NCBI GenBank assembly: GCA_964605735.1
Contig: CAZSDS010000001.1
Span: 480,126 to 544,125 of the forward strand
Direction: 5' to 3'
DNA length: 64,000 bases
Source of the DNA: an uncultured Candidatus Saccharibacteria bacterium
GTDB taxonomy: Bacteria > Patescibacteriota > Doudnabacteria > UBA920 > O2-02-FULL-48-8
Under the pieces are notes generated by a model. The model worked only from the letters and a program-made list of their open reading frames with translations, was not told where the DNA came from and made no database searches. Shown in pieces: positions 52,495-54,590 of the stretch (positions within the stretch are counted from its first letter, which is position 1; each line of letters starts with the position of its first letter). The position numbers and the translations under genes are program-made.

Positions 52495-54228
52495 ATGGAA
52501 AATAACGCCAAACCAATTGGTTATTTCCTTTACGTTCGGAAGTCGAGCGAAGAGGAAGACCGACAAGTCCTATCAATAGATGCCCAAGTGGACGAACTGA
52601 AAGAACTGGCCGCCAAATTAGGCATTAAAATAATCGATACAATACCGGAATCGCGGTCTGCCAAAGAACCCGGCAGGCCACATTTTAATTCCATGCTGGA
52701 ACGGATAACGAAGGGTGAAGCCCGAGGTATTTTGTGTTGGAAACTTGACCGGCTTTCACGAAATCCTATCGATGGCGGCCAAATTCAATGGATGTTGCAA
52801 AAGGGCTTAATACAACATATTCAAACTTTTGAACGAGGATATTATCCTTCCGATAATGTCATTATGATGAGCGTGGAACTTGGGCAGGCCAACCAGTTTA
52901 TCAGAGATCTTTCAGTCAATGTAAAGCGCGGTTTTAGGAAGAAATTGGCCGAAGGATGGATAACTGGTGTGGCCCCAAGTGGTTATCTTAATACAGCAGA
53001 CAGAGAAAAAGGATTAAAGATAATCGTTCCTGATCCGGACAGGTTTCCTTTCGTTCGCAAAATGTGGGATCTAATGCTCAACGGCAATCATAGCGTTATG
53101 CAAATCTTGGATATCGTGAATAACGATTGGAAATATAAGACTATCAAAAGGAAAAAGGAAGGCGGCGGTCCTATATCAAGAAGTGCCCTGTATAAGATTT
53201 TTACAAACACTTTTTATTACGGAGAATTCGAAGCGCCAAAGGGTAGCGGCATTTATTACAAGGGTTCTCATAAGCCCATGATAACTAAGGATGAATTTGA
53301 CCGAGTTCAGATCCGCCTTGGCGGCAAAGGTAAGCCCCGACCTCATACCCGAGAGTTTGCTTTTACCGGACCTATACGATGTGAGGATTGTGGCTGCCAG
53401 ATTACCGCAGAAGCGAAGAATCAAATTATTTGTACTTCATGCAAGTTTAAGTTTGGGTACGAGAATAGAGATGCTTGCCCTAAATGCAATACCAAGATTG
53501 AGGAAATGAAAAATCCAACGATATTAAATAAAGTTTATTATCATGGGACAAAAAGAATAAATCCTAACTGCACCAGTTGCACCAAGTACATTGAAGTAAA
53601 TGAACTCGAAAAACAAATCTCAGAATATCTCAGTAGCATTGAAATAAATCAGAAGTATTGCGACTGGGCAATTAAGCACTTACAAAAAACGCACGAATTG
53701 GAAGTTGATTCCAGAGAAAGCATAAGAAAATTTCAACAAGAATCTTATGATGCAACGGTTCAAAAATTAGACCGGCTGTTGGATATGAGGTTGAATCAAG
53801 AAATTACTGATACGGAATTTGAGAAAAAGAAGACAACTTTGCTATCGGAAAAAGAAAGGTTGCAAGAACTACTTAAAGATACGGATAACAGGCAAAACAA
53901 ATGGATTGATGCCGCAGAGCAAACATTTACATTTGCGCATGAAGCCCGATCAAAGTTTGAAGAAGCAAAACAAAACAAGGACATTAGGAAACAAAGAGAG
54001 ATTTTATTAGCGCTTGGTTCGAACTTAACGCTAAAAGACAGGAAACTTAATATCCAAGCGCTTGAACCATTCGCGATAATACAGAAGGCCTTGGTCAAAA
54101 TCCCGGCCGCTGGTGAAATGTTCGAACCTACGAAAACCATTGTGAATAAAAAGAAAAAAGACCAGATTACATCTGATCATCTTTCTTGGCTCGGGCGGCT
54201 GGATTCGAACCAGCGACCCAGTGATTAA
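52495..54228 (+). CDS. large serine recombinase (resolvase/invertase-type catalytic domain + recombinase domain + zinc ribbon)
   Basis: YFLYVRKSSEEEDRQVLSIDAQ (catalytic Ser), GILCWKLDRLSRN, and zinc-ribbon cysteines (CEDCGC...CTSC, CPKC). The 3' end overlaps tRNA-Asn by ~40 nt. Confidence 0.9.
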   Translation: MENNAKPIGYFLYVRKSSEEEDRQVLSIDAQVDELKELAAKLGIKIIDTIPESRSAKEPGRPHFNSMLERITKGEARGILCWKLDRLSRNPIDGGQIQWMLQKGLIQHIQTFERGYYPSDNVIMMSVELGQANQFIRDLSVNVKRGFRKKLAEGWITGVAPSGYLNTADREKGLKIIVPDPDRFPFVRKMWDLMLNGNHSVMQILDIVNNDWKYKTIKRKKEGGGPISRSALYKIFTNTFYYGEFEAPKGSGIYYKGSHKPMITKDEFDRVQIRLGGKGKPRPHTREFAFTGPIRCEDCGCQITAEAKNQIICTSCKFKFGYENRDACPKCNTKIEEMKNPTILNKVYYHGTKRINPNCTSCTKYIEVNELEKQISEYLSSIEINQKYCDWAIKHLQKTHELEVDSRESIRKFQQESYDATVQKLDRLLDMRLNQEITDTEFEKKKTTLLSEKERLQELLKDTDNRQNKWIDAAEQTFTFAHEARSKFEEAKQNKDIRKQREILLALGSNLTLKDRKLNIQALEPFAIIQKALVKIPAAGEMFEPTKTIVNKKKKDQITSDHLSWLGRLDSNQRPSD

Positions 54229-54261
54229 CAGTCACTTGCTCTACCGCTGAGCTACGCCCGA
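54187..54261 (-). tRNA. tRNA-Asn (anticodon GTT), 75 nt including encoded CCA
   Basis: Reverse complement folds as TCGGGCG-TA-GCTC-AGCGGTA-GAGC-A-AGTGA-CTGTTAA-TCACT-GGGTC-GCTGG-TTCGAAT-CCAGC-CGCCCGA-G-CCA. All stems are Watson-Crick. Confidence 0.85.
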
Positions 54262-54494
54262 ACAATTGATTTCAAAAACTCTTTGCCGTATCCACTCTTG
54301 AGCCGTTTTTCATGAATACGGGCCTCGGCTCTGGTTTTATACACTTCTGTATAAAACAAGGTCCAGGGTCTATATCCTTTCGTTGAAAAAACTTGGCCTA
54401 GGTTATGTTCTCGCAATCTACGACCTACATTGGTAGTCATACCAACATAAATTCTTCCATGTGCTTCGCTTTTTAGAGCATAGACTATGTACAT
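54252..54494 (-). CDS. GIY-YIG nuclease-superfamily small protein (80 aa)
   Basis: MYIVYALKSEAHGRIYVGMTTNVGRRLREHN is the GIY-YIG motif. Stop is 1 nt from the tRNA-Asn 5' end. A TATAAT box lies 9 nt upstream of the ATG. Confidence 0.8.
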   Translation of the reverse strand: MYIVYALKSEAHGRIYVGMTTNVGRRLREHNLGQVFSTKGYRPWTLFYTEVYKTRAEARIHEKRLKSGYGKEFLKSIVRA

Positions 54495-54510
54495 AAGAGA
54501 TTATTATACA

Positions 54511-54590
54511 CTAGTCACTTGCTCCCTGCCTACCGGCAGGCAGGTACCGCTGAGCTATCTACCTGCCGGCAGACAGGCGCCCGAACGATT
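54511..54590 (-). pseudogene. degenerate copy of the tRNA-Asn 5' half interrupted by two ~20-nt GC-rich near-palindromes
   Basis: Reverse complement: GTTCGGGCG-[CCTGTCTGCCGGCAGGTAGA]-TAGCTCAGCGGTA-[CCTGCCTGCCGGTAGGCAGG]-GAGCAAGTGACTAG. Outside the brackets it is identical to tRNA-Asn positions 1-33. No anticodon loop or 3' half follows. Confidence 0.5.

Follow-up and report, generated by a model that had tools for sequence, protein, structure and literature searches.

What is a gene for a GIY-YIG protein doing between an intact transfer RNA gene and a broken half of the same gene? The arrangement lies in a 64,000-nt stretch of contig CAZSDS010000001.1 from an uncultured Candidatus Saccharibacteria bacterium (the whole stretch is called the window below; coordinates are window positions and the locus is read on the minus strand). 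There, an open reading frame (ORF) for an 80-aa GIY-YIG protein is followed by an intact tRNA-Asn and preceded by a copy of its 5' half, which is split by two 20-nt palindromes. An earlier note made from the letters alone, here called the original prediction, had proposed that this is the footprint of a small mobile unit. We compared the locus with fetched loci and contigs, labelled with L- and P-numbers, and consider it moderately probable that it represents a small selfish nuclease cassette which lives in tRNA transcription units by partial duplication of its target and is paired with a mobile palindrome, although the mechanism is one that we infer.

The tRNA-Asn locus and its empty counterpart

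On the minus strand of the window, dnaG and rpoD (identified with Pfam) are followed by a terminator-like hairpin and then by the locus itself, which runs in the order promoter, split tRNA-Asn pseudo-copy, 18-nt leader, GIY-YIG ORF and intact tRNA-Asn. A promoter scan placed a promoter-like site (TTGATA, 17 nt, TAATAT, with TG; 54638..54666, minus strand) in a flank conserved with the related contig L235, and this is probably the ancestral tRNA-Asn promoter, which from its position would now drive pseudo-tRNA, ORF and tRNA. The pseudo-copy consists of three minus-strand blocks: block a (TTCGGGCG, 54578..54585) corresponds to tRNA positions -1 to 7 and is joined to the native upstream flank common to L235, block b (TAGCTCAGCGGTA, 54545..54557) to positions 8-20, and block c (GAGCAAGTGACT, 54513..54524) to positions 21-32, stopping just 5' of the anticodon. 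Between blocks a and b, that is between the acceptor stem and U8, sits a palindrome of the subtype PAL-B (54558..54577, no strand assigned; sense strand CCTGTCTGCCGGCAGGTAGA), which occurs as the same subtype in the same position in locus L041. Between blocks b and c, at the boundary of D loop and D stem (GGTA/GAGC, the slash marking the insertion point), sits PAL-A (CCTGCCTGCCGGTAGGCAGG, 54525..54544, no strand assigned), one mismatch from the 20-mer CCTGCCTGCCGGCAGGCAGG that we call PAL (palindrome). Taking out both 20-nt inserts leaves tRNA positions -1 to 32 with zero mismatches, which confirms the half-copy with two inserts that had been described. Beyond block c there is neither an anticodon nor a 3' half; ARAGORN and Rfam called no tRNA on the fragment, and it does not fold into a complete tRNA.

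Downstream of the pseudo-copy, the AT-rich leader (54495..54512, minus strand), which is unique to the insertion, holds a TATAAT hexamer (54508-54503) that ends 8 nt 5' of the ATG. In the promoter scan, this hexamer belongs to a second promoter-like site (TAGGCA, 18 nt, TATAAT) that begins inside the palindrome, and transcription from it would, as read from its spacing, yield a leaderless message. The ORF itself (54252..54494, minus strand) does not end 1 nt before the tRNA, as had been thought; it overlaps it by 10 nt, and its TAG stop (54254-54252) is formed by tRNA residues U8-A9-G10. The intact tRNA-Asn(GTT) (54187..54261, minus strand; ARAGORN, and Rfam RF00005 with 72.8 bits) includes the downstream copy of the duplicated segment (tRNA positions -2 to 32/33; 54229..54263, minus strand), identical to the three pseudo-copy blocks and part of the functional tRNA. 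A terminator-like hairpin with a T-run (54160..54178, minus strand) lies 3' of the tRNA, and its position is conserved in L235 and L237.

Two further traits in the original prediction had to be corrected. The genome is not AT-rich: its GC content is about 46% and that of the flanks 0.46-0.48, low values (0.34-0.43) being confined to an adjacent island at about 41.5-54.2 kb. Neither palindrome is perfect, as they lie 1 and 3 positions off the family consensus, and the first of them is not the product of idiosyncratic decay, since it represents the recurrent subtype CCTGTCTRCCGNYAGGTAGA, present in five other loci. Within the 64 kb, two sites with ≤3 mismatches from the 20-mer were found against 0.01 expected, both of them in the pseudo-tRNA; the window thus holds no solo copy of the palindrome, and one member of the GIY-YIG family. 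Given these numbers and the recurrence of the three-block layout in dozens of unrelated genomes (see below), a chance origin of the layout is excluded.

Comparison with tRNA-Asn loci of relatives, as the original prediction had advised, was performed on contigs fetched via rpoD homologues. In L237 (rpoD 88% identical), rpoD and the terminator are followed by an uninterrupted tRNA-Asn with no ORF, pseudo-copy or PAL. In L235 (rpoD 94% identical), the tRNA-Asn is split at 35/36 by a 221-nt group I intron (L235 3917-4137; RF00028, 56 bits) and there is no ORF, and in L236 no tRNA was found at the rpoD site. The conserved rpoD-tRNA-Asn site is therefore polymorphic for presence and absence: occupied in the window, empty in L237 and intron-only in L235. 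The pseudo-copy in the window is joined to the same upstream flank (TTGTTAATATTTGTCTGTTGTC) as the tRNA of L235, which identifies it as the ancestral 5' half in its original place. Judged by this comparison, the window has gained the leader and the ORF, the two palindromes and another copy of positions -2 to 33. The empty site supports the idea that a small GIY-YIG unit left its footprint here by partial duplication of the tRNA. The suggestion that the half-tRNA serves as leader of the GIY-YIG gene is likewise plausible: because the pseudo-half retains the native upstream flank and the promoter-like site, it may well be the leader of a transcript of ORF and tRNA.

Recurrence at tRNA genes and association with a palindrome

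A conserved peptide of the GIY-YIG protein was used to fetch 79 other loci, blind to tRNAs, from Patescibacteria, Bacteroidota, Omnitrophota and others; together with the window these make 80 loci, in which tRNAs were scanned with ARAGORN. The ORF adjoins a same-strand tRNA in 70 of them. In 58 loci the tRNA starts between -40 and +100 nt from the end of the ORF, with the exact 10-nt overlap in 26 of these, and in 12 further loci it lies just upstream of the ORF; an opposite-strand tRNA within 150 nt of the ORF was found in none of the 80. Among the ten loci without a tRNA call, four end too soon and five carry a tRNA-Asn that ARAGORN did not call because it is split by an intron. The tRNAs called belong to 17 anticodon classes. 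Of the tRNAs at these loci, 27 are Arg-CCT and 18 Asn, and the others include Leu, Lys, Thr and Phe.

Nearly every ORF is flanked by a partial copy of the local tRNA, usually of its 5' part and upstream; in a mirror-image minority (L040, L046, L057) a copy of the 3' part or of the whole tRNA lies downstream of the ORF. In most loci the pseudo-copy blocks preceding PAL match the local tRNA in 10 of 10 positions. The pseudo-copy ends at 32/33 in the window and at about 47-51 elsewhere, depending on the lineage, and in several Patescibacterial loci the duplication extends 2-5 nt upstream of tRNA +1, which favours duplication at the DNA level over the copying of a mature tRNA. Moreover, cultured isolates and one complete genome contain tandem arrays of two to four units that are 97-100% identical, with three units in L016 and four in L029, and at one tRNA in L072 there are two elements that share merely 72% identity. 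In L048 (3467-3559 and 3635-3727) and L072 (3234-3328), ARAGORN reported 93-95-nt "tRNA-???" genes, which proved to be full-length tRNA-Arg with the palindrome as D-loop insert beside an intact copy. Calls of this kind in genome annotations probably mark the GIY-YIG/palindrome element.

The palindrome that interrupts the partial tRNA copies is near-invariant from Patescibacteria to Bacteroidota, while the proteins are 55-74% identical. Taking sites with ≤3 mismatches as PAL-like and searching ≤200 nt upstream, we found such a site at 69 of 90 ORF copies (50 exact); downstream of the ORF it was present in 26 of the 90. The remainder of the same loci contains 2 PAL-like sites in 353 kb, so that the enrichment next to the GIY-YIG gene family is several hundred-fold. 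The distance from the end of PAL to the ATG has a median of 29 nt and is near-constant whatever the tRNA. In the tRNA copies, removal of PAL restores the tRNA sequence exactly, i.e. it is a precise 20-nt insert without target duplication. It is inserted at A/G steps, most often where D loop meets D stem (GGTA/GAGC, GATA/GAAT) or at 26/27, more rarely at 7/8, 9/10, 31/32, 53/54 and 55/56, and all these positions are unpaired or at stem edges of the cloverleaf. Near the ORF there are also multiple, tandem and nested palindromes. The subtype PAL-B, which in L041 occupies the 7/8 position, is in three cases nested in PAL (L009 ~2936-2976, L011 ~2890-2930, L041 ~416-456), where it sits after CA/TA and before GG inside a PAL-A copy; the nesting points to repeated insertion events beside the GIY-YIG gene. 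Chance or local decay as the source of the palindromes is ruled out by their recurrence across loci, and a sequencing or adaptor artefact by their presence in isolate and complete genomes and in assemblies of many projects. No Rfam family covers PAL or the pseudo-tRNA.

PAL is not restricted to these loci, as exact copies were found in at least 120 metagenome stretches and 35 viral-contig stretches, on contigs spanning 29% to 71% GC, and about one tenth of the sampled copies lie within tRNA-like sequence. The alternative that the palindrome is a dispersed repeat unrelated to tRNA loci, which had been named as damaging to the original prediction, is thus borne out as far as most copies lie outside tRNA loci, and fails in that PAL is several hundred-fold enriched beside the gene family and occurs in the window in the pseudo-tRNA only; for these two reasons the dispersal alters the interpretation and does not refute it. 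All-against-all clustering of ORFs ≤800 nt from PAL in 155 PAL-seeded loci revealed GIY-YIG as the sole recurrent neighbour gene family, besides a few phage proteins of related viral contigs, and another enzyme family travelling with PAL was rejected on this basis. By crude gene calls, solo PALs are intergenic in 54% of cases vs 21% of random positions, most of them 4-60 nt past the end of a gene. Of the solo PALs, 13% stand between direct repeats of ≥8 nt (2% of controls), a real but minority feature, and inverted repeats are barely enriched. PAL was also found in frame in SecA, in a P-type ATPase, just before VAFVGDGINDAPAL, and in a third long ORF (L161 1197-1216, L172 12286-12305 and L109 4699-4718 are the in-frame copies), where it is read as (R/S)LPAGRQ each time; since a 20-nt insert alone breaks the frame, the net insertion must be 21 nt or compensated.

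Two observations were made alongside. In L233, a viral-contig locus, a 21-nt palindrome variant (CCATGCCTACCGGCAGGCAGG) is repeated ten times in tandem up to the end of the locus (3916-4124), and further palindrome variants are scattered through the locus. Many palindromes stand amid short tandem repeats of 7-25 nt, e.g. cgtacctcgtaaat, aaatatcaaatc, attgtaaatt and ccacaaagg; such flanks were seen at solo copies (L082, L125, L122, L153, L139, L097, L185, L193) and upstream of pseudo-tRNAs (L028, L014, L039).

A predicted minimal nuclease and a possible route of spread

The 80-aa protein matches Pfam PF01541 over residues 1-71 with E=4e-15 and a score of 56.3 bits, the curated cut-off being 22.6. 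When 39 homologues are aligned, residues Y5, Y16, G18, R26 and H30 are invariant and E62 is near-invariant, so the catalytic residues are intact. The 108 detected homologues measure 77-130 aa and come mostly from Patescibacteria and Bacteroidota. The family is large, since a profile search of 1.84 billion cluster representatives (50% identity) matched 4,706 clusters at E≤1e-10. A profile search of the PDB returned 1ywl (5e-8), 1zg2 (1e-6), Slx1 (1e-4) and I-TevI (2e-3), the nearest solved structures by sequence being the UPF0213 proteins EF2693 and BH0048, then Slx1. The AF2 model (AlphaFold2; pLDDT 96) is best placed by Foldseek on 1zg2 (BH0048) and the Slx1 nuclease domain (TM-score ~0.7, 30-35% identity), whereas I-TevI (TM-score ~0.45, 13-15% identity) and likewise UvrC fit much more poorly. 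The protein is a single compact domain of 80 aa and differs in this from two-domain homing endonucleases with a nuclease and a DNA-binding part, and the alignment shows no conserved Asn after E62, the mark of a minimal stand-alone Slx1-like domain (PMC1564403). From sequence and model it is a minimal Slx1-type domain of the UPF0213/YhbQ branch without a DNA-binding module, and a predicted nuclease. Searches with tblastn of the phage collection and the plasmid collection gave no match to the family, and the matches of PADLOC to defence systems were all insignificant.

Slx1 is a structure-specific nuclease whose relatives cut at junctions of single- and double-stranded DNA. With such an enzyme, the features above could be joined as follows. 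About 250 nt of unique DNA, i.e. the 18-nt leader and the ORF, would have been inserted into the tRNA-Asn unit with duplication of positions from about -2 to 33. Of the two copies, the downstream one runs on into the remainder of the gene and would keep the tRNA functional, and the upstream one on the native promoter would be a dead leader. ORF and tRNA would be co-transcribed from the old tRNA promoter, and are probably one transcript because there is no room for a terminator of the ORF or a separate tRNA promoter. As the stop codon lies inside the tRNA, cleavage by RNase P would leave an mRNA without a stop, which could act as a built-in brake on a potentially toxic nuclease. PAL may be the cognate DNA site of the nuclease and a small non-autonomous partner, inserted preferentially near the gene where tRNA-like DNA has unpaired positions or stem boundaries; cutting at single-/double-strand junctions would fit its positions in the cloverleaf.

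The cassette would spread between homologous tRNA genes by break-induced repair or copying, as in homing: a break in a tRNA gene, repaired from an ORF-tRNA donor with one-sided homology, would leave the 5' part of the recipient as the pseudo-copy. Staggered nicks about 35-55 nt apart, followed by fill-in, are an alternative route to the same product. Local amplification could then generate the tandem arrays. Palindromes in the dead copy break up the direct repeat, which may make it harder for recombination between the two tRNA copies to remove the cassette precisely and so slow its loss.

A stronger version, in which the Slx1-type nuclease itself mobilises the 20-bp palindrome while the cassette colonises tRNA units by partial target duplication, is in our view a tentative possibility. 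In such a two-part system, whose cassette of about 250 nt would possibly be the smallest autonomous one of a selfish gene in bacteria, the palindrome would be placed precisely and without target duplication at tRNA-like loop/stem boundaries and at other sites, including in frame in essential genes, and the cassette would borrow the tRNA promoter and the U8-A9-G10 stop, with RNase P processing limiting the expression of the nuclease.

Several points weigh against the selfish-cassette reading. A catalytic domain of 80 aa without a DNA-binding domain leaves sequence-specific action on PAL or tRNA DNA unproven. A hydrolytic GIY-YIG nuclease alone cannot insert a 20-bp palindrome, and no ligase or recombinase partner was found. 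Any target site in the tRNA would persist in the intact copy beside the gene, so that self-immunity has no explanation under a simple homing model. There is no known vector, as neither the phage nor the plasmid collection yielded a match to the family. The pseudo-copy matches the local tRNA although tRNA-Asn differs among genomes, so that cross-species transfer is not demonstrated, and the match as read from the sequences fits a local duplication or gene conversion. Furthermore, about 90% of the sampled PAL copies have no GIY-YIG gene within the few kb available, and crude folding of the flanks of solo PALs gave no excess of stem/loop boundaries or of stability over random sites.

Known systems share single traits with the cassette. 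SegB of phage T4 is a free-standing GIY-YIG homing endonuclease encoded in a tRNA gene cluster (PMC2330249). Like the cassette in the window it is a GIY-YIG gene among tRNA genes without an intron, and it is selfish, promoting its own inheritance through cleavage of tRNA-gene DNA in genomes without it. However, Seg proteins have about 200 aa or more, a DNA-binding domain and a place in the homing endonuclease/UvrC lineage, in contrast to the 80-aa Slx1-type catalytic domain of the window, and SegB comes without target duplication or palindrome and is phage-borne, whereas the family of the window is chromosomal, without a match in the phage collection. Mobile endonuclease ORFs of fungal mitochondria (Allomyces atp6/ORF360) carry a replacement for the end of the gene that they invade. 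Here, too, a GIY-YIG ORF sits in a conserved gene whose function is kept by a duplicate part, the native part being left as a pseudo-fragment, but such ORFs replace the 3' coding end of a protein gene, while the cassette replaces the 5' part of a tRNA (the 3' part in some loci); the ORF in the window is several times smaller, and PAL has no known counterpart there.

The REP/REPIN-RAYT systems combine one nuclease-type gene with flanking short GC-rich palindromes, as seen at the ORF, and these are also dispersed intergenically, mostly just after genes, as the solo PALs are in other contigs. RAYT is an HUH/Y1 enzyme that cuts and rejoins DNA, whereas a GIY-YIG enzyme only hydrolyses it and the protein of the window is not of the HUH/Y1 type; PAL is identical across phyla and of low copy number, whereas REPs are lineage-specific and abundant, and REP/RAYT has no link to tRNA. 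Integrative elements at tRNA genes, moved by tyrosine or serine recombinases, also target tRNAs and keep the gene intact by partial duplication, but they are kb-sized, encode a recombinase and usually repeat the 3' part as attachment (att) repeats, while the cassette comprises about 250 nt and a nuclease and mostly repeats the 5' part. Short mobile GC-rich palindromes, including some in frame in protein genes, are known as yeast mitochondrial GC clusters and Rickettsia palindromic elements; they differ from PAL in sequence, host and size, with no known GIY-YIG tie at tRNA loci and no known conservation across phyla. The group I introns of Patescibacteria (PMC13011429) resemble the cassette in targeting tRNA-Asn in the same lineage, in being selfish and in leaving the tRNA functional, but they restore function by RNA splicing and the cassette by DNA duplication, and the two are independent. 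No system compared here combines a catalytic-only Slx1-type nuclease, partial tRNA duplication and a cross-phylum palindrome. No published description of the module or the 20-mer was found in full-text literature searches, whose reach into subscription papers is limited, so that "undescribed" is provisional. The partnership with the palindrome stands a real chance of being categorically new.

If this reading is right, a large Slx1/UPF0213 branch, amounting to thousands of clusters, would be selfish and tRNA-targeted and not made up of vertical repair nucleases, and an essential RNA gene would be open to invasion without an intron, by replacement of half of the gene. It would also explain many stray tRNA fragments and calls of tRNAs with a D-loop insert in annotations of Bacteroidota and Patescibacteria, and expose a 20-bp palindrome conserved across phyla. 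Some hosts are in culture (Cyclobacterium, Niabella, Pedobacter, Algoriphagus), which allows direct testing, and a tiny nuclease with a defined 20-bp site might become a reagent.

Alternative explanations and neighbouring features

The best survivor among the alternatives casts PAL as the primary mobile element, which other machinery or the repair of hairpin-induced breaks would move and which kills tRNA genes; the cassette of GIY-YIG gene and tRNA would then be a rescue or anti-palindrome module, favoured by selection for restoring the tRNA. In the sampled contigs PAL indeed has a much wider distribution than the gene, full-length tRNA copies split by PAL and ORF-less pairs of pseudo-tRNA and tRNA exist (L048, L072, L158, L114), and the direct repeats at solo PALs point the same way. 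We nevertheless regard this explanation as unlikely, because PAL density beside the ORF is hundreds of times the background of the same loci, the GIY-YIG gene is the only recurrent PAL neighbour and the PAL-ATG distance hardly varies with the tRNA.

A survey dated 2006 and devoted to the GIY-YIG superfamily described the prokaryotic Slx1-like branch as vertically inherited minimal repair enzymes and assigned the selfish members to another lineage (PMC1564403). The protein could accordingly be a housekeeping Slx1/YhbQ-type nuclease for repair or hairpin processing that is co-transcribed with tRNAs, with pseudo-tRNA and palindromes as by-products of fragile palindromes, and the survey, the strong conservation of the catalytic residues and the lack of matches in phages or plasmids would all suit a host function. 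Such a role is improbable, however, for a gene that is absent from the same site in the close relatives L237 and L235, is found at 17 called tRNA anticodon classes across lineages and forms tandem arrays of near-identical units, and a housekeeping gene would not need the duplicated piece of target that accompanies nearly every ORF.

The intron of the 94% relative L235 raises another question, namely whether the free-standing GIY-YIG protein serves in trans as the homing endonuclease of the ORF-less tRNA-Asn group I intron at 35/36. In five loci (L018, L023, L024, L041, L055) a split tRNA-Asn stands beside the cassette, downstream of the ORF, and the pseudo-copy of the window ends at 32/33, near the intron site. 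The intron type in Patescibacterial tRNA-Asn has already been described, most such introns being without an endonuclease gene of their own, in a paper with no mention of GIY-YIG genes, palindromes or duplications (PMC13011429); the co-occurrence of this intron with the GIY-YIG cassette is not previously described. Collaborative homing of this kind is nevertheless quite improbable as a general account, because the ORF of the window accompanies an intronless tRNA-Asn, intron and cassette are found in all four possible combinations, most members sit at tRNAs (Arg-CCT, Leu, Lys, Thr, Phe) that showed no intron in the fetched loci, and pseudo-copies of other lineages have a different end point, about 47-51. 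It could hold for a sub-lineage, not for the family.

Could the interrupted half-tRNA be a working RNA, for example one half of a split tRNA or a structured RNA acting as leader or regulator, with the palindromes as its hairpins? The 121-nt leader folds far better than shuffles (z=-5.6), and on the sense strand the palindrome variants of the window give G-U instead of A-C pairs. The strong fold is, however, a trivial outcome of two GC palindromes, no Rfam family matches the fragment, PAL is invariant and hence offers no covariation, and the same palindrome lies inside coding genes and past gene ends in unrelated contexts. A complete or split tRNA was rejected because ARAGORN and Rfam call nothing on the fragment, which stops before the anticodon, and with a complete tRNA-Asn present no split tRNA is needed. 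We consider a functional RNA very improbable.

Serine integrases are not known to need or create 33-nt repeats, and no meaningful long repeats were detected between 40 and 56 kb in the window. That the half-tRNA was left by integration or excision through the adjacent island with its large serine recombinase, or through another integrase, as the original prediction had offered with its recombination at an att site, is the least credible account: a 577-aa serine recombinase gene does abut and overlap the 3' half of the tRNA and bound the low-GC island, and tRNA fragments commonly mark integrated elements (PMC9897764), but the island lies 3' of the tRNA and the fragment, a 5' copy, on its opposite side, the repeats are only about 250 nt apart and hold a 243-nt ORF and no recombinase element, no second copy of the tRNA 3' part and no further tRNA repeat was found in the window, the far end of the island included, and the layout recurs in 79 other loci fetched via the protein alone (their flanks not screened for recombinase genes).

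The recombinase gene (52495-54228, plus strand; Resolvase and Recombinase domains in Pfam) converges on tRNA-Asn, its last ~14 codons and TAA stop lying antisense to the 3' half and anticodon loop of the tRNA. It bounds an island of about 12.5 kb (~41500-54200; GC 0.34-0.43 vs 0.46-0.48) that consists mostly of ORFs without a Pfam match, and in the related contig P0119, whose rpoD is 93% identical, a serine recombinase likewise lies downstream of rpoD. Inside the island, just upstream of small ORFs and the recombinase gene, Rfam gave a strong, full-length match to the LOOT RNA family (RF03000, 96 bits; 50934-51055, plus strand). Two more Rfam matches in the window are unrelated to the finding, a cobalamin riboswitch just above threshold (34 bits; 180-297, plus strand) and a 5S rRNA (63522-63637, minus strand).

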